From: Methanobacteriota archaeon
Lineage (GTDB): Archaea; JAADCQ01; Methanopyri; Methanopyrales; Methanopyraceae
Assembly (NCBI GenBank): GCA_027064425.1
Contig: JAMOPO010000025.1
Location: 1-11,983 of the forward strand
Length of the DNA: 11,983 bases
Direction of reading: 5' to 3'
Part shown: positions 1 to 11,983 of the stretch, one piece after another
Numbering within the stretch: position 1 is the stretch's first letter
Layout of the letters: the number at the start of each line of letters is the position of its first letter
Made by a program: the position numbers and the translations under genes
Notes under the pieces: model-generated
Told to the model about the DNA's origin: nothing
What the model saw: only the letters and a program-made list of their open reading frames with translations
Databases searched by the model: none

Positions 1-533
1 TTGGCGGCGTCGACGACGACGCGGAGTCCCTCGCCGTCGAAGTCGCCGACGTAGTCCAGGACGGCGTCCACGAAGCCGTTCAGGAGCTCGGGGGCGCGGG
101 TCCGCTCGCCGACGGACCGCCAGCCCGCCCGTTTCCCACCCTCCTCGAAGTAGATCCGCTCGATCTCCCGCTCCGCCTCCTTCGAGAGCCCACACCCGTC
201 GGGGCCCAGCAGTTTAATACCGTTGAATTCGGGTGGATTGTGCGAGGCCGTGACGACGGCGCCCGCGTCGAACCCCTCGGCCTCGACGAGGTACTGCACG
301 GCCGGGGTGGGCGCGACGCCGACGTCGGTCACGTCGCAGCCCGCGGCCGTGAGTCCGGCGGCGAGCGCGTCCTTGAGCGTGTCCGTGCTCGTCCGCGTGT
401 CGCCACCGATTAAGACTTCGGCGTCGCCCCCTAGGTACGTGCCGAAGGCGAGGCCCAACCGCCGCGCGAGGTCCTCCGTCAGGTCCTCCCCGACCACGCC
501 CCGGACGCCGAACGTGCCGAACAGCCGGCCCAT
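1..533 (-). CDS. glmM: Phosphohexomutase (phosphoglucosamine mutase / phosphomannomutase family), 5' part; runs off the left edge
   Basis: Not in the ORF track because it is truncated. Manual translation from ATG at 533 gives MGRLFGTFGVRGVVGEDLTEDLARRLGLAFGTYLGG...GGDTRTS...VGVAPTPAVQY...VTASHNPPEFNGIKL, with the FGTxGxRG, DTR, PTP and catalytic-Ser TASHNP motifs. SD-like GGGGGAG at 545-539. Family is certain; GlmM versus PMM/PGM specificity is not. Confidence 0.9.
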   Translation of the reverse strand, partial: MGRLFGTFGVRGVVGEDLTEDLARRLGLAFGTYLGGDAEVLIGGDTRTSTDTLKDALAAGLTAAGCDVTDVGVAPTPAVQYLVEAEGFDAGAVVTASHNPPEFNGIKLLGPDGCGLSKEAEREIERIYFEEGGKRAGWRSVGERTRAPELLNGFVDAVLDYVGDFDGEGLRVVVDAA

Positions 534-558
534 CGGGACTCCCCCGGGTGAGGGAGCG

Positions 559-1002
559 TTGATTAGGCTGGTGTTTAAGATCCTCGAGAAAACGCCGGGC
601 GTGGATGACCCGGAGAGGTTCCTGAAGTTCTCACTGGTGGGACTGAGCGGCGTCTTCGTGAATTTGGGGCTCCTCTGGTTCCTTACCGAGATTGTTGGGA
701 TGTACTACCTGGTGTCCAACGTGATCGCGGTGGAGGTGTCCATAATATCTAACTTCATACTGAATGACCTGTGGACGTGGAGAGACCGGCGCGATCCGGG
801 GCTAATCAATTTCCTAAAGCGGCTTGCGGCCTTTAACGTGGTATGCGCAGGCGGGCTCGTGATAAACACGACAGTCCTATGGGCGCTGACTGCGCTTTTC
901 CATATTTATTATATAGTTTCGGCCCTGTTCGGGATCGCAGCGGCCACGCTCTGGAACTATTGGATGAACAACCGAGTGACCTGGGGTGTCCTGCTTGAGT
1001 GA
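559..1002 (+). CDS. GtrA-family small membrane protein (putative lipid-phosphate-sugar flippase), 147 aa
   Basis: Four hydrophobic segments with the GtrA pattern RFLKFSLVGLSGVFVNLG...SNVIAVEVSIISNFILNDLWTW...WNYWMNNRVTW. Start re-called at TTG 559 behind GGTGAGGGAG (547-556); the upstream part of ORF 223..1002 is antisense to glmM. Confidence 0.9.
   Translation: MIRLVFKILEKTPGVDDPERFLKFSLVGLSGVFVNLGLLWFLTEIVGMYYLVSNVIAVEVSIISNFILNDLWTWRDRRDPGLINFLKRLAAFNVVCAGGLVINTTVLWALTALFHIYYIVSALFGIAAATLWNYWMNNRVTWGVLLE
905..922 (-). promoter_or_regulatory. Candidate BRE-TATA element inside gtrA
   Basis: Minus strand reads CCGAAAC-TATATAATAAA (922->905), resembling the methanogen BRE/TATA arrangement. 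The plus strand also has TTATATA at 909-915. It is formed by six consecutive A/T-ending codons (CAT ATT TAT TAT ATA GTT). Confidence 0.4.
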
Positions 1003-1006
1003 ACGG

Positions 1007-1918
1007 ATGGTCGATGACGTCAGGGAGACGCCGGAGGCCCTCAGGAACGTGCTGGAGGCCGACCTGAGCGGCCTGCCGGACCTCCGTGAGCGGAACTTCG
1101 TCATCACGACCGGCTCGGGCAGCAGTTACCACGTAGCTTACTACGCCTCCATGCTGCTCACCCGGGAGACCGACGTAGCCTCCTCCCACTACCCGGGCAA
1201 GCTGGCTCCCTGGGTTGACGGTGCGGACGCTGTAATCATCTTCTCCATCTCCGGCGGGAAGGACTCACATCGGATCGCGCGCGAGTTCGACGGCGCCGAC
1301 ATCATGGCCGTCACGTGCGAGAAGGACTCTCCGCTCGCCCGAGAAGCGGACTCGGTCCTGCTCATCCCGGTGGAGCGGGAGTCCGGGTTCCTGAACACCA
1401 AGACCATCGTTGCGGCCATGTACGCCTTCTGCGCCTATGTGTCCGAGGTCACGGGCTCGAATGTCCTGAACACGAGGGCGCCGGACGAGGTGGAGAAGTC
1501 GATCGAGGCGGATCCACGGGACGACCTCGTCGAGGCCATGCGCGAGTGTGAGAAGGTCTTCTTCGTTGGGGACGGGTACCTCCACGTCGCCGCGGAGCAG
1601 GCCGCGCTTAAGGCCGTCGAGGTGGGGGACGCCAACGCCCTGGCCACCACGACCGACGAGCTCTTTCACGGCAGGTTCTTTGGGGACCACTCGCGCCGGC
1701 TTTACGTCTGCCTGAACGAGGGCAGCGCGGACCTCATCGAGGAGCGCTCGAACGGCGAGGCCAACATTTTCCGACCGGATGAGGTGGTAAAAGTTAAGGT
1801 TGAACCCGACGACCCGAACGCGCCCGTCGTGGTCCTGCCCGCCCTGTACCTGGCCATCGACGCGGCGTACGGCCCCGTCAACACTTCACAGGCCAGGGAC
1901 TGGTGGGACCACCTCTAA
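1007..1918 (+). CDS. Double-SIS-domain phosphosugar isomerase/deaminase-like protein (resembles the GlmS isomerase half, no glutaminase domain), 303 aa
   Basis: Motifs TGSGSSYH, FSISGG, NTKT, FFVGDG...EQAALKAVE and ELFHG parallel the GlmS C-terminal SIS domains (GxGTS, SQSG, TK, EGALKLKE, ELKHGP). ATG 1007 lies 4 nt after the gtrA stop, preceded by GAGTGA. Confidence 0.8.
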   Translation: MVDDVRETPEALRNVLEADLSGLPDLRERNFVITTGSGSSYHVAYYASMLLTRETDVASSHYPGKLAPWVDGADAVIIFSISGGKDSHRIAREFDGADIMAVTCEKDSPLAREADSVLLIPVERESGFLNTKTIVAAMYAFCAYVSEVTGSNVLNTRAPDEVEKSIEADPRDDLVEAMRECEKVFFVGDGYLHVAAEQAALKAVEVGDANALATTTDELFHGRFFGDHSRRLYVCLNEGSADLIEERSNGEANIFRPDEVVKVKVEPDDPNAPVVVLPALYLAIDAAYGPVNTSQARDWWDHL

Positions 1919-1933
1919 CCGGGGCGAGGAGCG

Positions 1934-3004
1934 TTGAACACGGACGCGGTGGTCCTGGCGGGCGGGTTCGGGACCCGGTTGAGACCGCTCACCTGGGACA
2001 CCCCCAAACCGCTGGTTCCGATCCTCGGTCGACCTTTGCTCGAGTGGGTGATTCGCAGCCTACCTGACGACGTCGTGCACGTTCACATCGCCGCCGGGTT
2101 CAGCTCCGACAAGCTGGAGAGGTACGTCGAGTCCAACCCCCTACCTCGCAAGCTTCACTTGAAGGTGGAACCCAAGCCCCTGGACACGGCGGGCGCGATC
2201 AAGTTCGCCTGCCGGGACTCGACCGCGGACGTGTTCGTAGTCTTCAACGGTGACATAATCTCCTCGCTCGACGTGCGTGAGATGCTCGAGTTCCACCGCG
2301 AGCACGATGGCATCGCCACGATCGCGCTGTATCCCGTGCCCGAGGACGAGGTTTCCCGGTTCGGTGTGGTGGATCTGAACGAGGACAACCGCATCCTGAA
2401 CTTTGTCGAGAAGCCGGCCCCCGAGGAGGCTCCCTCCAACCTGATCAACGCAGGGGCCTACGTCCTGGACAGGGAGGTGCTCGACTACATCCCCGAGGGC
2501 CGACCGGTCTCCATCGAGCGTGAGATCTTCCCGAAGCTGGCCGAGGAGGGCCTCCTCTACGGGTTCAAGTTCGAGGGTTACTGGGTCGACGTCGGACTCC
2601 CGGAGACCTACCTCGAGGCGCACTGGGTCTTGATGGAGCACGAGTGTTCCGGCGCGGCCTTGGTGGGGGTCCGGACGGACGGCGCGGAGGTAAACGAGCC
2701 CGTTGTCGCCGACCCAATGAGCGAAATCAAGGACTCGACCGTCGGCCCCTACGTGTACATCGGAGGACGCGTCGAGATCGACGGGGCCGTGATAAAGAAC
2801 TCAGTCATCCTGGCGGACGCGCGCATCGAGAACGCCGAGATTAAGGACACGATCATCGCGGAGAAGTGCCACGTCGAGGACGCCGAGCTTGAGGGATGCG
2901 TCATCGGGCACGACGCTGAGGTCTCGGGATGCACACTGAAGGATGTCAAGGTAGCGCCCGGCAAGGAGGCGGGGGAGGACCTCGAGGGCCAGTGGGTGAT
3001 CTAG
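1934..3004 (+). CDS. Sugar-1-phosphate nucleotidyltransferase (mannose-1-phosphate guanylyltransferase-like) with C-terminal left-handed beta-helix, 356 aa
   Basis: LAGGFGTRLRPLT...PKPLVP signature, NGD, FVEKP, INAGAY, SIEREIFP, GYWVDVG and hexapeptide-like C-terminal repeats. TTG start with GAGGAG SD. Confidence 0.92.
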   Translation: MNTDAVVLAGGFGTRLRPLTWDTPKPLVPILGRPLLEWVIRSLPDDVVHVHIAAGFSSDKLERYVESNPLPRKLHLKVEPKPLDTAGAIKFACRDSTADVFVVFNGDIISSLDVREMLEFHREHDGIATIALYPVPEDEVSRFGVVDLNEDNRILNFVEKPAPEEAPSNLINAGAYVLDREVLDYIPEGRPVSIEREIFPKLAEEGLLYGFKFEGYWVDVGLPETYLEAHWVLMEHECSGAALVGVRTDGAEVNEPVVADPMSEIKDSTVGPYVYIGGRVEIDGAVIKNSVILADARIENAEIKDTIIAEKCHVEDAELEGCVIGHDAEVSGCTLKDVKVAPGKEAGEDLEGQWVI

Positions 3005-3433
3005 GTGAGTGAGCGCACCATTGACACCATCCGGATCATCGCGTACGTCTTCTTCCTGTTCTTCGTACTCCCCGTCCTGATATTCGCCCTCGTCGTGGTC
3101 CTGGCACCTCTCGTGGTGTTGCTAGTGCTGATGGTGGCTTTCGTGGTCATATTCACTCAGATCCCCTGGACACCGCCGGAGTTCAGCCTCGCAGCGGAGG
3201 TAATTCTGATCGCGCTGTACCAAATAACCCGCGAGAAGCTGCTGCTTGAGGTCGCAGAGAACCTGGCGACCCATCGGAAGAAGTCCCTCGAGCTGGACCG
3301 CGAGGAGGACATTGAGAGAGCGCTGGAGGAGGGTGACACGAAGCGCGCGCTGCGCCTCTACCTCCGGGAGATCATGGAGAGGGTCGTTGGGAGTCCCCCA
3401 CATGCTAAGCCCGAAGACCGTGGCGACGATTAA
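3005..3433 (+). CDS. Hypothetical membrane protein (N-terminal TM segments plus charged helical C-terminus), 142 aa
   Basis: GTG directly abuts the upstream TAG. About 45 hydrophobic residues are followed by an E/R/L-rich helical tail; C/G-ending codons fit the other genes. Confidence 0.7.
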   Translation: MSERTIDTIRIIAYVFFLFFVLPVLIFALVVVLAPLVVLLVLMVAFVVIFTQIPWTPPEFSLAAEVILIALYQITREKLLLEVAENLATHRKKSLELDREEDIERALEEGDTKRALRLYLREIMERVVGSPPHAKPEDRGDD

Positions 3434-3965
3434 CACCGTCGTTACGAGCCTCCCGTTCGCCATCTCCCTGTACCTTGTCCTACGCAGGATGGGACGCACG
3501 CTGATTCAAATGTACTCCCTGGCGTATCTGGCCCCGTTCCTCGTGATCGTCTACGGTGTCTCGGTCCCGGTTCCGGGCAACCTGTACGCGTATTTCACGG
3601 GTGCCCCCGTGCTGTTGACGTACGGGGTCGCGGACGCGGCGGTCCTAACCTACGCCGTGGGCTCGGCGCTCGCGGTTATGTTCGTGGGCATGGACCAGTG
3701 GGCCGACGTGCTCTACTCGGGCTCGCTGACCGCAATGTGGCTGCTGAACGCGGTTATGGACTTGGGTCCCCGGGCCTCGCTGCTCCTCGGGTCGGCGATC
3801 ACGGTCGCGTCGAACATGTTCGTGGCACTGTACAAGTACCACGCCTGGCCCATAATCCCGCTTCCTTCGGTAATACTCCAGTTCTCGGTGGCTGTGGGAG
3901 CGATAACGGCGCTGGAGGGATTGGCGTGGTGGGTCTTCACGAAGCTAAAGCCGCCTGCGCGGTAG
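3402..3965 (+). CDS. Hypothetical polytopic membrane protein (about 6 TM segments), 187 aa
   Basis: Start re-called at ATG 3402 (GGGAG upstream). MLSPKTVATINTVVTSLPFAISLYLVL... is hydrophobic throughout. Overlaps the upstream gene by 32 nt. Confidence 0.7.
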   Translation: MLSPKTVATINTVVTSLPFAISLYLVLRRMGRTLIQMYSLAYLAPFLVIVYGVSVPVPGNLYAYFTGAPVLLTYGVADAAVLTYAVGSALAVMFVGMDQWADVLYSGSLTAMWLLNAVMDLGPRASLLLGSAITVASNMFVALYKYHAWPIIPLPSVILQFSVAVGAITALEGLAWWVFTKLKPPAR

Positions 3966-4540
3966 CCGTCGCCATCCTAGCGTTGATCAACGCTCTCGCG
4001 GTGAGCCACCCGAGGTTTCGGCCGGTAGGTACCACCATCACGTACCCGTGGCTGAACTCGAGCGATACCTACAGGGTGTTGTCGCTTCCCGTCCTCTCGG
4101 GTCCCTCGGTTAACACCATACTCCCGGTCGGGCTCTTCGTGTCCTCCGACAGGCTGTTCGTAGGCCCTCTAACCACGGACGTCAGCAGCGCGTCGCTGTG
4201 GCCGAAATCCACGAGCACCAAGCTGACACCTCTGCTCCGGCGGCTTTCACCCGACGCGCGCGTCTCGTGTTACGGGATCAGCTCCCGCCACTTGGACGTA
4301 GCCGTTTCAGAAACCCTCTCGGTGTTGGTCGGGAAGCGCTGCGTGGTGGTTGTTGGGAGGGACTACCTGATGGTGGTAAGCTGCGAGCGCGCCAGCGTTA
4401 GGAGGTGTTTAGGAGGCGCGTACGTGTCCGCGAGCAAGGCTAGCCTGGTCATGTCGTTCCCGGAGCGTATCCTGGAGGGGGCCTATACGTGGAGGCCAAG
4501 GTTACCGCTGTCGCTGCCGTTTCCGCACTTGTCTCTATAG
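3926..4540 (+). CDS. Family A member A1: membrane-anchored/secreted protein of unknown function, 204 aa
   Basis: GTG 3926 behind GGAGGGA (3914-3920) and an N-terminal signal/TM segment (AACAVAVAILALINALAVS). Paralog of 7518-8111: TYPWL, LPVLSGP/MPVVMGP, DRLxxGPLT, RVSxYG, YVS, PER, W[RK]P. Confidence 0.75.
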   Translation: MVGLHEAKAACAVAVAILALINALAVSHPRFRPVGTTITYPWLNSSDTYRVLSLPVLSGPSVNTILPVGLFVSSDRLFVGPLTTDVSSASLWPKSTSTKLTPLLRRLSPDARVSCYGISSRHLDVAVSETLSVLVGKRCVVVVGRDYLMVVSCERASVRRCLGGAYVSASKASLVMSFPERILEGAYTWRPRLPLSLPFPHLSL

Positions 4541-6732
4541 CGTTCGTCGTCTACGACTGCTGCGAGGAAGTGGGTAGGATCACCACGACCATGGACCTGC
4601 CCATCCAAGCCCTAAAGACGTACCTCATAGCGAAGTACGGCCTGTCGGGCGCCGACTGGGACCCGTACTCGTACTTAGGCAGAGCCCCACTGGTCAACTA
4701 CCCCATTCTTCCCTTTCTCTTTCCCGCCCTCCTTACCAGGCTCACCAAAGACCCGATGCTATCCTGCTCCGTCACCGAGATTATCTATAGATCGGTTCCA
4801 GTGATCGTTTGGCTATTCCTTCTTTTCCTCGGTAAGTGCTCCTCCAGGGCCACTGTAGCCACCCTTGTGTACCTAATTTCCTACCCGGTGTTCTCCGTAT
4901 ACGACGCCCATTACGTGAGGATAGCCACAACCATGTACTTCTGTTCCGCCGTCGTGGCGATCACCGTTTGGCACTCGAAATTGAGCAGAAGGGTGAGGGA
5001 AACCTTATCCATACTGGCCTGGTTCGCATCGGTACAATCGAACTTTGTGTACTCGCTCGTGCCGCTCGTCGTGGTGTCCATCATGGAAAGTCCGAAGCTG
5101 CTCGTCGCCGCCGGCGCCGCGGTGCCGCCCATGGTGCTGGCCTACTGGGCGGGGAAGCTGGAGTTCGACAACCCTCCCGCCTCCTCACGGCTCACGCTCT
5201 CCCCGTACGACACCGTCGACACCACGCTGATTCTGGTCGTGACAGCGCTCGTGGCCACCGTGGTAGCGCTGTCTTTCCTGCTCGAGGATTGGAGAAAAAG
5301 TGCCCTGATCTCGCTGCTGACGGTGACGGCCTCCCTGGGACCGTTCGCGGTGTTCGCGGCGCCCCCGCTGGCCTACGGGGTCCTGAAGGTTGTCAAGGTG
5401 GTGGCGCAGCTCGACCCTCACCGGCTCGCGCTGATGGCACTGCTCTCTTTGATCGCCCTATGCGCCCGAGTCGCCGAGCGCCTGCTGCGAACGATCACGG
5501 TGTGCGGCGGCGTGGGATCAGTGGCCTGCTTCCTGATGGCCCTCACGGTCCTCCTCGGGGTCTGCCGATGGGATGTGGCCCCCATGCACGCCCTGCAGCT
5601 CGGGCATGGTCCGCGGGACGTCAGGAGCGTGGTGACCTCACCCAACGACGCGAGCGCCATCTTTCCCTGGAACGGTCGGACCGTCGGGGCGTCGCTGGCC
5701 GGGGCCTTCTATCAAGGTAGCTCGGAGCCTGAGCTCCGCGTGCTCTCGGCGGTCTACTTCCCAGGCAGCTTGCTCTCCACGCTGCGCTTTTCGGACTACG
5801 TTCGTCGGCCGCTTTACAACCAGGCGTTCGACCCTCAGCTGGCCGACAAGGTGGTGAGGATCCTTCCTGCCGGTCGGGTGGAGCACCTGCCGGGAATCAT
5901 CGTCCCGACGTCCGGCCTGGCGGACGTGCGGACGGTGGCGATAAGGAACGCGCCCGCCATCACCGTACGGGACGCCATCCCGGTGCGCAGGGCTAGGGCG
6001 CTCTACGTGGGCTCGTTCACGGACTACAGTTACCTGTGGTTGAATGTGGTGCGGTGCGCGCCCGCGGGCTACTTCCCCGTAATCCCCTGCCTCCGCCCCT
6101 ACGATCTCAAGCACCACCAGCAGCTCGACGTGACCAGGTACTGGACCGGAGAGATCCTGATCCTGGACCCTGAGGCCGTCAATTACCCGCACCTCGACAG
6201 GCTGGTTCACCGCGCCAAGGTGGTCCTGGCGGTGCGAGGGGCCTTCGACAGCAGGGGGCTCGGCTCGATCCTGGGAGCCGTTCACCGGTGCGGGAAGCGC
6301 GCCGAGGTCATCGACGGGATCGACCGTCCCATCAAGGCCCCGGTTCTGCGGGACCTCGCTAGGGTCACCGCCGTCCCCGTTAACCACGCCGAGCGCGGAG
6401 TCGTGCAGCCGGTCGGCAACGATCGAATGATTGTGAGGCCCCGGAGCGAGCTGTCCATCATCCCGTGGGCGTGGGCGCCGTTTTGGGCGGTGAACGGGCG
6501 GGAGGGTGAGGCGTGCCCGGTCGGCCCGTACATGCTCGTCAGGACCGGAGGCAAACCCGCCCACCTACACTACGTCGCCTGGGAACGATACCAGTCCCGA
6601 GCCTACGAGGTCTCGGTGCTGCTTCTGGCGCTCAGCGTCGTCGGCGTCACGTGCTCCGAGCTCGTCCGGGGTAGGCCGGCTAAAGGGAGTAGGGCCACCT
6701 CGGGTACCTCCACACCAGGTCCTGAAAGGTGA
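4489..6732 (+). CDS. Family B member B1: large polytopic membrane protein, YfhO/PF10131-like (predicted GT-C glycosyltransferase), 747 aa
   Basis: N-terminal TM, then MDLPIQALK...WDPYSYLGRAPLVNYP (D...K...WxPxxxxGxxPxxxYP loop), about 10 further TMs, a large soluble domain and a YfhO-like end (WAPFWAVNG...YMLV...LHY plus a final TM). GTG start with GGAGGGG SD. CDS is solid; the family call is by motif recognition. Confidence 0.7.
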   Translation: MEAKVTAVAAVSALVSIAFVVYDCCEEVGRITTTMDLPIQALKTYLIAKYGLSGADWDPYSYLGRAPLVNYPILPFLFPALLTRLTKDPMLSCSVTEIIYRSVPVIVWLFLLFLGKCSSRATVATLVYLISYPVFSVYDAHYVRIATTMYFCSAVVAITVWHSKLSRRVRETLSILAWFASVQSNFVYSLVPLVVVSIMESPKLLVAAGAAVPPMVLAYWAGKLEFDNPPASSRLTLSPYDTVDTTLILVVTALVATVVALSFLLEDWRKSALISLLTVTASLGPFAVFAAPPLAYGVLKVVKVVAQLDPHRLALMALLSLIALCARVAERLLRTITVCGGVGSVACFLMALTVLLGVCRWDVAPMHALQLGHGPRDVRSVVTSPNDASAIFPWNGRTVGASLAGAFYQGSSEPELRVLSAVYFPGSLLSTLRFSDYVRRPLYNQAFDPQLADKVVRILPAGRVEHLPGIIVPTSGLADVRTVAIRNAPAITVRDAIPVRRARALYVGSFTDYSYLWLNVVRCAPAGYFPVIPCLRPYDLKHHQQLDVTRYWTGEILILDPEAVNYPHLDRLVHRAKVVLAVRGAFDSRGLGSILGAVHRCGKRAEVIDGIDRPIKAPVLRDLARVTAVPVNHAERGVVQPVGNDRMIVRPRSELSIIPWAWAPFWAVNGREGEACPVGPYMLVRTGGKPAHLHYVAWERYQSRAYEVSVLLLALSVVGVTCSELVRGRPAKGSRATSGTSTPGPER
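6004..6146 (+). repeat. Direct repeat tract 1, copy a (143 bp, identical to 9545-9687)
   Basis: Base-by-base comparison: TACGTGGGCTCGTTCACGGAC...GTGACCAGGTACTGGAC identical at offset 3541; flanks mismatch. Confidence 0.97.
6458..6606 (+). repeat. Direct repeat tract 2, copy a (149 bp, identical to 10008-10156)
   Basis: Base-by-base comparison: TCATCCCGTGGGCGTGGGCG...CCAGTCCCGAGCCTAC identical at offset 3550. Confidence 0.97.
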
Positions 6733-7459
6733 AATTAGGCAGGACGATCGGTGACCAGCGGATCACCATCCCGCCGCGTGATCGGATGACCCCGCGGACC
6801 CCATCCACGTCGAGCCGCCCGTGCCGGGCCTCCACGGCTGTGATTTCCATCGGGGTTGGAAGGCCGAGAATCAGGAAGGCCCGGGACAGGAGTGGGATCC
6901 TTGCCATTGAGATGATGGCCAGGTGGTGAACCTTCCCTTCGTACCCGCGGACCATCTTACCGTGGACTATCAAGGAAGGAGGGACGTACGTTGCTGAGCC
7001 GCTCCAGATGACACTTTTAAGTAGTACCAGTGAGCACGGGCCGCTGACTTCTACCCCGGAGTAGTTCACCCTAACCTTGGGCCTCCCGGAGCAGACGATC
7101 GTGAATGGTGCCGGCATCGGGCCCATGTACACGTTGACGCGATTCCCGCTGACGACCACCCAGTATCGGCCGGCGAGGTGCGGGATGGGGACGATCTCAT
7201 ATCCTCCCATGGAGGGGAGGTTGAACTTCTCATAGGCGGTGGGGTCGCGGTACCAGGCGTAAACGGGGACGGGGCCGGGCTGAAGGTCCCTACCGCTCAC
7301 CGCCGGCAGCCTTTTAACGCTCATTATCTTCACCGAGGGGGGAGTGGGGTTCGTCGTCGCCGCCGTCCACGTGTGGAAGTATCCCTTCGAGACGGCTAGG
7401 ACGGCCACCAGGACGGCCACAAGTTGTGTGAAAAGGACGGGCCGGACGTAACCGGGCAT
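6680..7459 (-). CDS. Membrane-anchored/secreted protein, probable distant family A member (A3), 259 aa
   Basis: N-terminal TM (LFTQLVAVLVAVLAVS), T/P linker and beta-rich body. YAWYRDPTAYEKFNLPSMGG aligns without gaps to A1 YPWLNSSDTYRVLSLPVLSG; C-terminal VWRYPRWPYSL resembles A1 TWRPRLPLSL. GGGGCGGTG precedes the ATG. Confidence 0.7.
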   Translation of the reverse strand: MPGYVRPVLFTQLVAVLVAVLAVSKGYFHTWTAATTNPTPPSVKIMSVKRLPAVSGRDLQPGPVPVYAWYRDPTAYEKFNLPSMGGYEIVPIPHLAGRYWVVVSGNRVNVYMGPMPAPFTIVCSGRPKVRVNYSGVEVSGPCSLVLLKSVIWSGSATYVPPSLIVHGKMVRGYEGKVHHLAIISMARIPLLSRAFLILGLPTPMEITAVEARHGRLDVDGVRGVIRSRGGMVIRWSPIVLPNFTFQDLVWRYPRWPYSL

Positions 7460-7470
7460 GCACCGCCCCC

Positions 7471-7491
7471 GGGCGCGGTCCCTCCGCGCCC
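7471..7491. promoter_or_regulatory. Perfect 8-bp inverted repeat in the A3/A2 divergent intergenic region
   Basis: GGGCGCGG-TCCCT-CCGCGCCC, immediately followed by the main AT-rich patch of the gap (ATTATT, 7492-7497). The repeat is certain; its function is not. Confidence 0.35.
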
Positions 7492-7517
7492 ATTATTGGG
7501 TCATTCGGGGAGGGAAC

Positions 7518-8111
7518 ATGAGGGGCCTGAGGCTCGTTGCGGCGGCCCTGATTGGCTGGCTGTGGTGCGCCGTGGCATGGTCGGCGGTGAATCCCAGGTA
7601 CGTCATTCACGACGGAAAGGTGACGTACCCGTGGCTTCGGGACGGCTTCCGGACGCTGGAGATGCCCGTGGTCATGGGACCGGTGACGGACACCTGGGTC
7701 CCCTGGAGGGTCGTACAGGCGTCGGAGTGGCTGATCTGGGGGTGGTTGGAGGCGGGACCCGATCGTCTCGCGTTGGGGCCCTTGACGTACCGGTCGAGCG
7801 GGAGCTGGGCCAAGCTGATGAGGGCGTCGGAGGGTACCAGAGTGTCGGGGTACGGGCTGAAGTCCGGGGATTCCGACCTGATTTTTCGGGGCTTCCTAGT
7901 GGACAGGGGAGGTAGGTGGCTCGTCCTGTTGTGCCCGGGCGGTCCGGTCCTGGTGCTCGGTGGGAAGATCAGGGAGTGGCGGGTGTTCGGGGAGGTTTAC
8001 GTGTCGCTCCGGAGGGGGATGGTGATCGCCGTCCTGCCAGAGCGCGTGTTCTGGGGAGTGCATGTTTGGAAACCGAGCTTGCGATTGTCCTCATTGGGTT
8101 TACCGCCCTGA
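7518..8111 (+). CDS. Family A member A2: membrane-anchored/secreted, Trp-rich protein of unknown function, 197 aa
   Basis: ATG 7518 behind GGGGAGGG, a signal-like N-terminus (MRGLRLVAAALIGWLWCAVAWSA) and collinear motifs with A1. Confidence 0.78.
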   Translation: MRGLRLVAAALIGWLWCAVAWSAVNPRYVIHDGKVTYPWLRDGFRTLEMPVVMGPVTDTWVPWRVVQASEWLIWGWLEAGPDRLALGPLTYRSSGSWAKLMRASEGTRVSGYGLKSGDSDLIFRGFLVDRGGRWLVLLCPGGPVLVLGGKIREWRVFGEVYVSLRRGMVIAVLPERVFWGVHVWKPSLRLSSLGLPP

Positions 8112-10252
8112 TGCTGGGCCCGATGATCTGGGACTGCTGCGTTAACGCCGGCGCTTCCCCGGCGGACATGGACCTGGCCGTTCAGGCTGTGAAAACGTAC
8201 CTGATCAGCCGTCACGGACTCGCCGGCGGCGACTGGGATCCTCACTCGTACCTGGGCCGGCCGCCGCTGGTCAACTACCCTGTGGTCCCGTTCTTACTCC
8301 CCGCGCTGCTCTCTAGGTGCGTCGACCCGGCCCTCGCGTGCTCGATCTCCGAGTACGTGTACAGGATGCTGCCCGTGTTGGTCTGGGCCGCGCTCAGGCT
8401 GGCCGGAGCGGACTCCCGCGGGTCTCTAGGGGCGCTGATCGTCTATTTGGTTCTGTATCCGATCTACCTGCTGCACAATGCCACTTACGTGCGGGTGGCC
8501 ACGACGCTGGCGTACTGCGCGTTCACGACCGCTGTGATCGTATGGTACTCAAACCTTGGACGCAGACTTCGGACCGCAACCTCCGCCGCGCTGCTCTACG
8601 TCGCGCTCCTGTCAAATTTCATCTATATCCTACTCCCGGCGGCGGCGTTCGCGCTCCTGGAGTCCCGCACGCTCTTCCCACCGATCCTGTCCGCGACCCC
8701 GGTCCTGTATCTGGCGTACGAGTTCGGCAAACTGAGCTTCAGCAACGTGCCCGCCTCGTGCCACTTCACCTACACGATCCTGGACAAAGGGACGACGATG
8801 ATCCTCGGGCTCCTGTCCGGCCTTGCCGTCCTGACGCTGCTCATCAGCCTATTGGACTCACGCTCGGCGGTGCTGTCGCTGGGGACGGGAGCCTGCCTGG
8901 CGACGCTCGCCGGATGGTGCATGGTATCCCCCGGGCTGGAGAAGCTCATGATCGGGTCGGCGAAGGTGCTCACGCAGCTCGACCTGCAACGGCTCCCAAT
9001 CATCCCCTCGTTGACGCTCACGATCGGGGTGGCAAGGGTGAGCCGCAAACGGTCGCTTCCTCCGACGTGGGCGCTGATCGGCCTCCCGCCGGTCTGCCTC
9101 ACGGCCATTGGATCGGCGGCGCTTCCATGGGTGAGCCTGCCCAGCCTGATCGCAGGGGTCTATGACGGGCACGAGCAGCGGGTCTTCGTGGCCGGCACGG
9201 CCGACGCCTTGTTCCCGTGGAAGGACGGGAGGCTGGGCATGTCACTGATGGGAGCCTTCCATCAGGGGCTTCCGGAACCGGCGTTGAGGGTGCTCACGGC
9301 CACGTACTTCCCGCTGGGCACGATGGCGGGTGGGTTCAGCGACTACTCTCATCGACCGGGTTACAACCAGCCCTTCAGCCTAGAGTTAACCCGGAAGCTC
9401 CTCGACATACTCCCCACCGGCCGCGTGGAGGTGATGGTGGAGCCTGCGGCCTTGCACGGGCCATGCGACGTGAAGGGAGTGCCAGAGGTCCGGTCACGGG
9501 TGAGCCTAAGGGACGCCCTGCCCGTCGATCGCGTTCGGGTCCTTTACGTGGGCTCGTTCACGGACTACAGTTACCTGTGGTTGAATGTGGTGCGGTGCGC
9601 GCCCGCGGGCTACTTCCCCGTAATCCCCTGCCTCCGCCCCTACGATCTCAAGCACCACCAGCAGCTCGACGTGACCAGGTACTGGACGGGGGACGTCCTT
9701 GTCGTTGACCCCGGGGCTCTTCAACACCCGGGCCTGAGGCGGCTGGTGAAGCGCGCTAGGATCGTTGTCGTCGCGCACTCGTCGCCGGCCCTGGATCGCG
9801 CGGACGTGAAGGACGTCGTCCGGCTCGTGAGAAAGTGCGGTAAGCGGCCCATCGTGCTGGGACCCGTCCACAGACCGATCGCGCCTCGGGCTCTGCGACC
9901 CCTGATGCGGTCACTGGTTCACTGGGACGGGTGCAAGGTGAAGGGCGCCGTGCACCTGGCGGCGAACGACAGGATGGTCGTGGACGGGGTAAGGTCACGC
10001 CTGGCCGTCATCCCGTGGGCGTGGGCGCCGTTTTGGGCGGTGAACGGGCGGGAGGGTGAGGCGTGCCCGGTCGGCCCGTACATGCTCGTCAGGACCGGAG
10101 GCAAACCCGCCCACCTACACTACGTCGCCTGGGAACGATACCAGTCCCGAGCCTACCTTTGCTCCGCCCTCCTTTTCATCGGCCTCACCGCGGCGGCAGT
10201 GATGCTCAGCAGCGCAAGGAGCAGGCTGAAGGGGGCCGTCGGCCTGTCGTAG
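8066..10252 (+). CDS. Family B member B2: YfhO/PF10131-like polytopic membrane protein (predicted GT-C glycosyltransferase), 728 aa
   Basis: Start re-called at TTG 8066 (GGGGAG at 8053-8058), matching the B1 start position. Full-length paralog of B1: DCC, MDL, KTYLI, DWDPxSYLGRxPLVNYP, YVRxATT, QLD, FPW, GAFxQG, FSDY, YNQ. Confidence 0.72.
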   Translation: METELAIVLIGFTALMLGPMIWDCCVNAGASPADMDLAVQAVKTYLISRHGLAGGDWDPHSYLGRPPLVNYPVVPFLLPALLSRCVDPALACSISEYVYRMLPVLVWAALRLAGADSRGSLGALIVYLVLYPIYLLHNATYVRVATTLAYCAFTTAVIVWYSNLGRRLRTATSAALLYVALLSNFIYILLPAAAFALLESRTLFPPILSATPVLYLAYEFGKLSFSNVPASCHFTYTILDKGTTMILGLLSGLAVLTLLISLLDSRSAVLSLGTGACLATLAGWCMVSPGLEKLMIGSAKVLTQLDLQRLPIIPSLTLTIGVARVSRKRSLPPTWALIGLPPVCLTAIGSAALPWVSLPSLIAGVYDGHEQRVFVAGTADALFPWKDGRLGMSLMGAFHQGLPEPALRVLTATYFPLGTMAGGFSDYSHRPGYNQPFSLELTRKLLDILPTGRVEVMVEPAALHGPCDVKGVPEVRSRVSLRDALPVDRVRVLYVGSFTDYSYLWLNVVRCAPAGYFPVIPCLRPYDLKHHQQLDVTRYWTGDVLVVDPGALQHPGLRRLVKRARIVVVAHSSPALDRADVKDVVRLVRKCGKRPIVLGPVHRPIAPRALRPLMRSLVHWDGCKVKGAVHLAANDRMVVDGVRSRLAVIPWAWAPFWAVNGREGEACPVGPYMLVRTGGKPAHLHYVAWERYQSRAYLCSALLFIGLTAAAVMLSSARSRLKGAVGLS
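9545..9687 (+). repeat. Direct repeat tract 1, copy b
   Basis: Identical to 6004-6146. Confidence 0.97.
10008..10156 (+). repeat. Direct repeat tract 2, copy b
   Basis: Identical to 6458-6606. Confidence 0.97.
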
Positions 10253-11676
10253 CGCACGCGTCCGTTGAGGACCATCAGGCCGGCCGGTCCCGGCCGGCGG
10301 TGGGAGTGAGGCTTCCACCAGGGGCTGAACGACTGGGCCACTAGCCCGTGGCCGGAGAGCGTCCTGGGGGTTAGTACGAGGGGCTCCGAGACGGGCTTGA
10401 TGCCGTTCAAACGGGACCACTCGTACGCGAGGGTGAGCTGGTCGGAGGACTGAGCAGCCAGGTGTCCGGGGGACACGATCCTCAGGATCTTCAGCTTTAG
10501 CTGCAGCACCCTCGGTTCCACGCTCGAGGACGGGGTGAAAGCCACGTACCGCGAGTCCCCGACCTGAGTCATCAGGATGGCGAACGTGGCCGTCGCGGGC
10601 GTCGTGGACAGGAACGGCGGATTCACCACCGGTCGCCCGCGGAGCACGTGGTGGACAACCTCCGTGAACCACGGGTCGCTCGAGACCACCGCGACGGCGC
10701 TTCCCGACCCGACGGTGACGGAGCCGGCGATCGTCATCCTGGGCTTCGCCAGATACGAGAGCTCGGCCATGTTGAGCGGGATGAACGTCAGCGACATCAG
10801 CGCGGCGGAGGCCAGGACCCGTCGATGCCTCCGCTCCAGCCCGGCTAGCACGGAGTCGGCGTACCGGAGGGCCTCCGATAGGGCCAGAACGTACGGGAAC
10901 GCCAACCCCATGACGAGTCCGGGATGAAGGAGGGAAGCCGCGGCCAGGACGCAGGCCAGCAGCGCAGGTGCTTTCCACCGGGTCCCGAGCGCACGGTGCA
11001 GCAGGTAGCCCAGGGTTACCGTCACCGCAAGGGACACTGAGATACCCAGGCAGTACGCGATCGTCAACGGGCTCAGGATGGCGGATGTCGCCATCCGGTT
11101 TATCGACTCGGCGAGGTACGAAGCGAGGTCGTCGGCGGTGCACGCGAGGGAGGCGATCAGCGGCCACGGGGATGGAGATCGTAGCGCGAGCTCCACGCAC
11201 AGGGCCAACTCCGGCAGGGCAAGGGATCCCAGGGTCCTTCGGGCGGGCGAGCCCGTCGCCAGCCCGGCCAGGTAACAGACGACGAGCGCGGGAGCGGGGT
11301 GTAGGGTGTAAGCGACGGCGGCCAGCGAGGGTAGCGCCAGGGTCGCGGCCAGGAGGCGGGAGCGAAAGGCCAGGTACGTGCACAGGGAGACGGCGAGGAC
11401 GGCCAGCAGGGTCGTCGATCGGCCGAGCCCGTAGAGCAGGTAGTACGGGGTGGGGGACAGCGGGTACCCGCCACCTAAGTAAGGGTTCCACTCCGGGAGC
11501 TCGTGCGCCCTGAGGCTCTCGGCGACCGCCTTGAGGTTCGCCACCCCGGAGGCGTAGACGTAGGGGAAGAGGGGAACGCGGAGTGGGACCAGGGCCAAGA
11601 AGATCAAGACCAGGCTTGCCATCGAGCCCAGCGCGATGGCGTCGACGTGCCTCCGGGTCGGGAAAGGCACCGGCAT
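10153..11676 (-). CDS. Family B distant member B3: shortened YfhO/PF10131-like polytopic membrane protein, 507 aa
   Basis: TM, then LPEWNPYLGGGYPLSPTPYYLLY (W[ND]PY..G.P loop), many TMs, a soluble domain and a C-terminal SFSPWWK...GPAGLMVL...VRY plus final TM that parallels the B1/B2 end. Confidence 0.68.
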   Translation of the reverse strand: MPVPFPTRRHVDAIALGSMASLVLIFLALVPLRVPLFPYVYASGVANLKAVAESLRAHELPEWNPYLGGGYPLSPTPYYLLYGLGRSTTLLAVLAVSLCTYLAFRSRLLAATLALPSLAAVAYTLHPAPALVVCYLAGLATGSPARRTLGSLALPELALCVELALRSPSPWPLIASLACTADDLASYLAESINRMATSAILSPLTIAYCLGISVSLAVTVTLGYLLHRALGTRWKAPALLACVLAAASLLHPGLVMGLAFPYVLALSEALRYADSVLAGLERRHRRVLASAALMSLTFIPLNMAELSYLAKPRMTIAGSVTVGSGSAVAVVSSDPWFTEVVHHVLRGRPVVNPPFLSTTPATATFAILMTQVGDSRYVAFTPSSSVEPRVLQLKLKILRIVSPGHLAAQSSDQLTLAYEWSRLNGIKPVSEPLVLTPRTLSGHGLVAQSFSPWWKPHSHRRPGPAGLMVLNGRVRYDRPTAPFSLLLALLSITAAAVRPMKRRAEQR

Positions 11677-11708
11677 CCCCCCGGCGGGTCCGCGCCCGCG
11701 TCGATGCC

Positions 11709-11716
11709 TTTATTAA
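11709..11716. promoter_or_regulatory. Candidate TATA box, possibly bidirectional, between B3 and carB
   Basis: TTTATTAA (+) / TTAATAAA (-) is the only AT-rich tract in the 70-bp divergent gap, about 30 nt from each start codon. Confidence 0.55.
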
Positions 11717-11746
11717 CGTGCGCCGCTAGTGCTGGAGCGGGTTCTG

Positions 11747-11983
11747 TTGCCCGAGACCCCCGATAAGGTCCTGATCATCGGGTCGGGCCCGATCGTCGTC
11801 GGTCAGGCGGCGGAGTTCGACTACTCTGGTTCTCAGGCGTGCAAGGCGCTGCGGGAAGAGGGCGTCGAGGTCGTTCTGGTGAACAGCAACCCGGCGACGA
11901 TCATGACGGATCCGAACATGGCGGACCGCGTCTACATCGAGCCGTTGGACGCGCGGATCGTGGCCAAGGTGATCGAGAAGGAG
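11747..11983 (+). CDS. carB: Carbamoyl-phosphate synthase large subunit, 5' part; runs off the right edge
   Basis: TTG 11747 gives [66 protein letters not shown], the canonical CarB N-terminus. GGAGCGGG upstream. Confidence 0.97.

Follow-up and report, generated by a model that had tools for sequence, protein, structure and literature searches.

The locus described here raises the question of how two neighbouring genes, whose proteins share 45% of their residues, have come to contain two stretches of DNA that do not differ by a single letter. The stretch analysed, further referred to as the window, comprises 11,983 nt and corresponds to contig C25 of a 57-contig, 1.54-Mb bin of a deep-sea archaeon of the genus Methanopyrus. 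The two genes, B1 (4489..6732) and B2 (8066..10252), lie in tandem on the forward strand and belong to one family. Two segments of B1, designated tract 1 (6004..6146) and tract 2 (6458..6606), are repeated in B2 at 9545..9687 and 10008..10156, respectively. In our opinion, the identical tracts are in all likelihood the product of recent and recurrent ectopic gene conversion between the B1 and B2 copies.

Both repeats, of 143 nt in tract 1 and 149 nt in tract 2, are matched letter for letter and are maximal, with no further matching base at either end, and both lie in frame within the open reading frames (ORFs) of B1 (4489-6732) and B2 (7916-10252). A search for repeats recovered them as the cores of two larger families, D1 (5966-6224 / 9507-9765, 83%) and D2 (6451-6606 / 10001-10156, 99%). 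Over the codon alignment of the two genes (2136 aligned nt) the overall nucleotide identity is 57.6%; outside the tracts it is 51% in DNA and 40.6% in protein (616 columns), and the synonymous divergence (dS) is 1.44 outside the tracts and 0 inside. The longest identical runs in this alignment are of 149 and 143 nt, followed by 14, 12, and 10 nt, and 10,000 shuffles of the match/mismatch string produced no run longer than 32. At identical residues, methionine and tryptophan excluded, the same codon is used in 89 of 89 cases inside the tracts versus 41.8% of 244 outside (P ~2e-34). The tracts are separated by diverged segments, M1 in B1 (6147..6457, 311 nt) and M2 in B2 (9688..10007, 320 nt), which are ~44-52% identical in nucleotides; M2 is longer by 9 nt, and the B1-to-B2 offset shifts accordingly from 3541 to 3550 between the tracts. 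The tract identity is thus far beyond chance. The first-pass annotation of this DNA had reported two exact tracts of these lengths, free of mismatches even at synonymous sites and ending abruptly amid indels, and it was correct on each of these counts.

An exact repeat in a bin that mixes haplotypes could also be a product of its assembly: similar tracts of paralogs or strains might have been collapsed by bubble removal, which is done by both of the assemblers concerned, or the contig itself might be chimeric. To these general grounds for suspicion, including the fragmentation of the genome into 57 contigs, two specific ones can be added, namely contig C4 of the same bin, described below, in which the head of one copy is joined to the middle of the other via tract 1, probably by a loop-skipping path, and the depth of one short contig in run X4, given below. 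In five public runs, from two studies, at least 96% of the words sampled from window positions 4400-10400 are present; two of these five are possible sources of the window assembly. As an independent assembly check, Logan contigs built at k=31 from runs X1, X3, and X4 (two studies) were used; run X6, with 6 of 30 bins covered at a depth of ~2, was not used for conclusions. In the three runs the k=31 contigs break at each tract exactly 30 nt in from its edge, which is the behaviour that an exact repeat imposes at this k; their limits are 4400-6033, 6117-6487 (in all three runs), 6577-9387, 8253-9574, 9658-10037, and 10127 onward, the flank contig ending at 9574 being found in run X3. In run X4, moreover, each tract forms a contig of its own, of exactly 143 nt (9545-9687) in the case of tract 1 and 149 nt (10008-10156) in that of tract 2. 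The latter has a depth of 18.1 versus ~9-10 in the flanks, i.e., about twice as much, while the former has a depth of 11.3 instead of the ~19 expected for two copies. Unique parts are covered evenly (depth 86-103 in run X1 and 7.9-10.9 in run X4), and single-letter differences between run X4 and the window outside the tracts (at 5775, 5993, 6258, 6339, and 7782) leave the tract limits unchanged.

No alternative letters of the main haplotype occur inside the tracts in the k=31 contigs of the three runs, and run X1 keeps apart, rather than collapses, a ~5%-diverged version of the tract that belongs to a second haplotype, H3 (10105, 10108, and 10117 at a depth of 8.2). The 2811-nt contig of run X4 (6577-9387) and contig C28 of the bin each bridge the B1 tail, the intervening gene D, gene X2, and the B2 head; therefore the tandem is real, and the same bridging contigs rule out the window contig as a chimera of two alleles. 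Among the k=31 contigs over the locus no joints are listed, and these contigs are uninformative on a deletion form. Even at an identity of 95% the tracts would stand out against the 51% of their flanks. Binning or polishing is excluded as the source of the repeat, and an assembly artefact in the wider sense is extremely improbable.

Evidence on the origin of the tracts comes from the comparison of two strains. The strain of the window is designated H2; H3, the second tandem haplotype, is represented by contigs C4 and C28 of the same assembly. Overall, H3 is about 12% diverged from the window. Outside the tracts the orthologs of the two strains are 82-92% identical, and the paralogs ~51% identical; M1 is the fastest-evolving part between the strains, with 82.3% identity to H3 and a nonsynonymous divergence (dN) of 0.148. 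C4 has 7 differences from the window within tract 1, and C28 carries the same 7 of 7; the two H3 contigs show no differences over the 120 comparable nt, C28 starting 23 nt inside the tract. Past the end of tract 1, C28 follows the B1 type and C4 the B2 type. The tract 2 versions of C4 and C28 depart from that of the window at 7 and 8 sites, of which 6 are shared, and the two contigs disagree with each other at 3 sites. The tracts thus group by strain and their surroundings by gene, from which concerted evolution by short-tract gene conversion follows. A single conversion before the strains split would predict within-strain differences about as numerous as the between-strain ones; with 0 and 0 differences observed in H2, and 0 (of 120 nt) and 3 in H3, homogenisation must have continued after the split. 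The first-pass annotation had proposed that gene conversion homogenises two portions of the extracytoplasmic domain, located at the C-terminus, and had named as a check that the tracts be identical within a strain but differ from one strain to the next; the grouping found in H2 and H3 agrees with both.

H3 is also found in run X3, where its variant letters match in 21 of 22, 6 of 6, and 5 of 5 cases. The depths of its B1' head (18.1), B1' tail-to-B2' head (17.1), and B2' middle (16.7) in this run are even, which suggests that H3 also carries the tandem. In contig C4 (= L018/L032, 1-4124) a B1-type head (window 3089-6206, 88%) is followed by a B2-type middle and tail (window 9542-10752, 91.6%), and tract 1 is exactly where the two are joined. 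This join is probably a loop-skipping assembly path; alternatively, it may be a genuine product of unequal crossover.

The direction of transfer was approached by comparing trees of the tracts with those of the gene heads, using, besides B1, B2, and C4, the single family gene on contig C3 of the bin (C3a) and the single gene found at this locus in two other Methanopyrus genomes (G003a and G005a). In the head trees, calculated for the a-type genes, B1 groups with C4 (support 100) and C3a (53), and B2 with G003a/G005a (100). In the tract 1 tree B1, B2, and C4 all group with G003a/G005a, with an ultrafast bootstrap (UFBoot) support of 96%. Tract 1 is thus of B2 type, and the conflict between the two trees indicates that tract 1 of B1 was overwritten with B2-type sequence; judging from these trees, it was probably copied from B2, as the donor type, to B1, as the recipient. 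In the tract 2 tree there is no grouping with G003a/G005a, and the support amounts to 50-64%. In a sliding window the 3' half of tract 2 is closer to C3a (76%) than to G003a (66%), which suggests a transfer from B1 to B2.

The same trees bear on another explanation, a mosaic by import. According to it, all that survives of a recent duplication, or of a shared backbone, is the tracts; in one copy the diverged head, middle, and tail would have been exchanged for those of a divergent, co-occurring Methanopyrus allele by crossovers in the conserved blocks. The material for such an import is at hand: divergent alleles are sympatric, as a G003a-type gene (67% identical to B2) is present in the same metagenome collection as contigs C4, C28, and C16, at least three haplotypes of the locus occur in this one bin, and the head, middle, and tail of B2 are all collinear with the G003a type. 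However, three segments would have to be replaced separately, and the four breakpoints would have to coincide exactly with the tract edges. Both tracts should also be of the same type if they came from a single duplicated template, while tract 1 is of the B2/G003a type (96%) and tract 2 does not group with G003a/G005a and is C3a/B1-like in its 3' half. Moreover, the homogenised tracts that H3 possesses in its own version would be left unexplained. Import is therefore regarded as improbable. A diversity-generating retroelement was also considered and rejected: none of the window ORFs scanned has a reverse transcriptase domain, the two copies of each repeat do not differ at all, and the changes between the flanks are of every kind and include indels.

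The tracts could, finally, be kept identical because they serve at the nucleotide level, for instance as RNA elements, binding sites, or dedicated anchors for recombination in cassette exchange; the first-pass annotation had named a nucleotide-level function as the alternative to conversion. Between the strains, 9 synonymous differences are present in ~67 sites of the tracts versus a proportion of synonymous differences (pS) of 0.276 in the flanks (binomial P 0.005, Fisher P 0.012), and dS is 0.14-0.16 in the tracts versus 0.31-0.37 in the flanks, i.e., about half, as would be expected under such a constraint. The 5' core of tract 2 is, in addition, unusually conserved in DNA across subfamilies, and exact runs of 58 nt (G005a/G005b) and 46 nt (G003a/G003b) stand against runs of at most 30 nt in cross-genome a/b pairs. 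These runs and the lowered dS of the tracts are also expected, however, from promiscuous recombination in these blocks. A search of the whole window with Rfam covariance models gave no match at E<=1, and neither tract, on either strand, folds better than shuffled sequence (z +0.35 to +1.66; 119-193 of 200 shuffles fold at least as well). The strains differ in the tracts at 7 and 7-8 sites, replacements included (dN 0.018-0.028). Other family members vary freely at synonymous sites, with the motifs at 51-80% nucleotide identity: C3a carries the tract 1 and tract 2 protein motifs at 69.5% and 76.2% nucleotide identity, the corresponding values for G003a are 78.7% and 74.1%, and the range for C3a, G001a, and G002a is 51-78%. 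A nucleotide-level function as the reason for the identity is accordingly very improbable, and the alternative put forward in the first-pass annotation found little support.

The runs mentioned above are found in the core of tract 2 (PW.WAPFWAVNGREG...), where a- and b-type paralogs ~32% identical in protein share 58 nt in G005 (L014/L020) and 46 nt in G003 (L034:7900-8100 / 13150-13350). They may represent a second, independent conversion site in other Methanopyrus genomes. A bolder proposal, to which we assign a small chance, is that the tracts act as recombination anchors bracketing the fast-evolving M segment of a strain-variable surface-glycosylation enzyme, and that paralogs and co-occurring lineages exchange DNA through them. 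If true, it would account for the lowered between-strain dS of the tracts, for the 46-58-nt runs in the tract 2 core, and for the join of a B1 head to a B2 tail in C4, and the locus would then parallel, in a hyperthermophilic archaeon, the mosaic loci of surface variation.

For the tracts as such, gene conversion between B1 and B2 is the preferred explanation, and its course can be envisaged as follows. In this view, B1 and B2 are two old, ~45%-identical versions of one hypervariable gene, whose modules stand in tandem ~3.5 kb apart. We infer that the identical tracts were created by non-reciprocal homologous recombination, i.e., short-tract ectopic gene conversion, between these copies. Tracts 1 and 2 are the best conserved stretches of the C-terminal half of the family, and tract 2 in its B1 copy holds the most conserved family motif, PW.WAPFW.V.GREG..CP.GP.; protein conservation across the family may keep the DNA of these two parts of the C-terminal domain alike to a degree that permits strand invasion and the formation of a heteroduplex, and conversion would be confined to them. 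The heteroduplex would end where the similarity collapses, leaving the sharp edges of the tracts. More than one event would be needed, with tract 1 copied from B2 to B1 and tract 2 probably in the opposite direction. The second strain has been homogenised likewise, with tract sequences of its own, and the outcome would be the concerted evolution of two ~145-bp islands in genes that otherwise diverge freely.

Several points weigh against this explanation or narrow it. The support of 50-64% obtained for the donor of tract 2 goes no further than to suggest a B1-to-B2 transfer. The depth of the tract 1 contig in run X4 falls short of that expected for two copies, and contigs can hide low-frequency differences between copies, so that an identity of '100%' could be one of '98-100%'. 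The identity of tract 1 within H3 rests on one shared stretch of the assembly graph, because C28 begins inside the tract. Only two tandem-bearing haplotypes have been found, and the term 'recurrent' rests on two lineages; no further strain with the tandem is present among the relatives compared, which comprised 41 genomes and the six loci of a metagenome contig collection, three of them contigs of this bin and one the G003 locus. Lastly, the lowered synonymous divergence of the tracts between the strains is not predicted by simple conversion between two copies.

The proteins encoded by B1 and B2 have few known relatives. B1 (747 aa, supported by its ORF and by the phase of the GC content at third codon positions, GC3) is a membrane protein; B2, likewise in GC3 phase, comprises 728 aa counted from a TTG at 8066, although its frame is open from a GTG at 7916, and this start was set by alignment with G003a/G005a, which begin at the same TTG. 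A search of 5.8 billion proteins with B1 returned five matches, three from this bin and two annotated as 'hypothetical protein', from Methanopyrus kandleri and Methanopyrus sp. SNP6. A search of 1.84 billion representatives with a profile built from 15 members gave eight matches, all from the family itself, with no remote relatives. Of the 41 genomes, five contain the family, all belonging to the genus of the window (four of the five congeners and none of the 35 others). No Pfam family was found for B1 or B2 at E<=0.01, nor any GT-C family for the 15 members at E<=10; NCBIfam gave no relevant family for either protein, apart from one chance-level row (0.014) for B2, and a profile search of PDB gave one designed protein at E 0.3 and nothing else useful. 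As far as these searches tell, B1 and B2 form an orphan family of Methanopyrus only.

The AlphaFold model of B1, with a predicted local distance difference test score (pLDDT) of 70 and a predicted template modelling score (pTM) of 0.73, consists of an N-terminal multi-helix domain (approximately residues 1-355), an extracytoplasmic C-terminal domain that is alpha/beta and beta-rich, and a transmembrane (TM) helix at 699-727. In this model tract 1 of B1 (residues 506-553) forms the first strand-helix-strand of the C-terminal alpha/beta domain, and tract 2 (residues 657-706) comprises the last beta strands together with the first part of the C-terminal TM helix. When the model was compared with 48,161 chains by VIA-align, ranks 1-12 were all occupied by GT-C enzymes (Z 11.6-7.9; 247-362 residues aligned, covering model residues 1-346 and beyond), although in VIA-align a Z under ~13 can reflect a generic helical arrangement. 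The top match was ArnT (5f15_A: Z 11.6, root-mean-square deviation 5.8, 326 residues aligned); the others included Pmt4, AglB, AftA, Pmt1/2, ALG12, STT3, ALG6, and PglB. Foldseek gave no row against PDB at E<=0.001; the rows for AftD and STT3 are weak (E 0.04-0.4). The motif D56-W-D58-P is invariant in 15 of 15 family members; in B1 it falls where the second helix (36-56) gives way to the first loop, and this loop (57-70) is modelled at a pLDDT below 50. An Atlas feature search pointed to PF10131-type clusters with a score of 0.97 and is taken as a lead only. It is reasonable to regard the N-terminal domain as a predicted GT-C glycosyltransferase fold. The YfhO-like C-terminal motif proposed in the first reading of the sequence found no counterpart in the Pfam and NCBIfam searches of B1 and B2, nor anything beyond a shared predicted fold of GT-C type.

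The nearest relatives of B2 are G003a and G005a (66-67%), and that of B1 is C3a (50% aa identity), which argues for old allele types placed in tandem and not for a young pair of duplicates. B1 and B2 had earlier been taken for the products of a simple old duplication, a view better replaced by that of two old allele types of one hypervariable locus. As a G003-type locus belongs to the same contig collection as C4, C28, and C16, such divergent types do co-occur. The bin holds at least three haplotypes of the locus, namely C3, the window, and C4 with C28, and two more of its contigs, C16 and C18, carry versions of the neighbouring b-type gene of C3 at 96% identity. With this mix of haplotypes, several small contigs of the bin are alternative alleles of co-occurring lineages, not extra genes.

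The genes around B1 and B2 form a partly conserved cluster. When reversed, the window is collinear with C3:23626-14329 of this bin; flank identity is 85% (1-3860) and 77% (11260-11983), and the middle is diverged, with one family gene on C3 and two in the window. Judged by this comparison, the locus is a strain-variable hotspot, and the B-type gene appears as the variable member of an otherwise conserved cluster. Its upstream part consists of conserved sugar-activation and flippase-type genes (223..3004), all on the forward strand: a GtrA-domain protein (223..1002; Pfam PF04138, 6.8e-29), a SIS-domain protein (986..1918; PF01380, 1.4e-14), and a sugar-phosphate nucleotidyltransferase with a hexapeptide tail (1934..3004; PF00483, 5.7e-44). 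Small orphan genes in GC3 phase and on the same strand directly precede both B genes: X1 (3698..4540, with a coding signal from ~3960) is located upstream of B1, and X2 (7458..8111) upstream of B2, whose start at TTG 8066 it overlaps by 46 nt (stop at 8111). No Pfam family was found for X1 or X2. BLASTP aligns X1 with X2 at 29% over 190 aa (E 1e-18); as the two are paralogous, the repeated module is X plus B, and the family seems to travel as a two-gene module. Between the modules, on the reverse strand and convergent with B1, lies D (6680..7459), an orphan gene of 259 aa supported by GC3/GC2 phase, which is also found beside the single-copy locus on C3 (window 6457-7409 versus C3:17164-16223, 65%).

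Two observations concern the right end of the window. A 507-aa ORF on the reverse strand (10153-11676) has a coding-phase signal. Its stop codon (10153-10155) falls within the final bases of tract 2, its overlap with the B2 tail would amount to 100 nt, and its PIG-U row is at chance level (E 1.6). It may encode another membrane protein of the cluster. Positions 11729-11983 of the forward strand contain the start of a gene for the carbamoyl-phosphate synthase large subunit (PF25596, 9.2e-34), and the same gene flanks b-type family genes in related genomes.

The locus provides a natural example, resolved to the base, of short-tract conversion between deeply diverged paralogs in Methanopyrus, an archaeon without genetics that grows above 100 C, and it implies that homologous recombination in this genus can act, and act recurrently, on islands of ~145 bp. 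In a literature search combining Methanopyrus with gene conversion, neither term appeared in a title or abstract among the matches listed. There is also a practical side, as the locus breaks metagenome assemblies: several haplotypes and one probable chimera are present in a single bin. B1 and B2, with their predicted GT-C fold, their X partners, and their position beside the GtrA and sugar-activation genes, are candidates for strain-specific glycosylation of the cell surface.

The predicted N-terminal helical domain of B1 resembles the GT-C enzymes (ArnT, PMT, AglB/PglB/STT3, ALG, and Aft), although, unlike the GT-C families, B1 and B2 have no membership in a curated sequence family. The arrangement of the locus recalls the three-component glycosylation systems of Gtr type with their type-specific GtrC, in that GtrA-domain and sugar-activation genes stand upstream and the B gene is variable; no GtrB-type GT2 gene was seen in the window.

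In bacterial antigenic-variation loci, conserved homology blocks flank variable cassettes, and segmental conversion takes place between expressed and variant copies of surface genes. Likewise, conserved blocks flank the fast-evolving M1 and M2 in B1 and B2, the locus is variable and related to the cell surface, and recombination is confined to the blocks. Unlike in those loci, both B copies look intact, no dedicated recombination machinery or array of silent copies was seen, and homogenisation is observed in the blocks and not in the variable M1/M2 cassette itself.

The closest parallels come from methanogens themselves. According to PMC4632066, in mtrA-1/mtrA-2 of Methanococcales and Methanomicrobiales only the non-membrane domain is homogenised by conversion, and PMC6053082 lists seven archaeal genes under recurrent gene conversion, all of them in methanogens. 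B1 and B2 share with these genes the neighbourhood of the paralogs, the conversion of a part of the gene while the rest diverges, and a greater similarity of paralogs within a genome than of orthologs between genomes. They differ in that their tracts are two very short islands (143 and 149 nt) surrounded by saturated synonymous divergence, that they constitute a strain-variable orphan family and not core methanogenesis genes, that the evidence comes from strains in a natural population and not from orders, and that the two tracts seem to have opposite donors. Partial and recurrent conversion of paralogs in methanogens is therefore already documented, and the present case adds to it without changing any general concept; it is remarkable for the shortness and sharpness of its tracts, the depth of the divergence around them, the population-level evidence, and the host.

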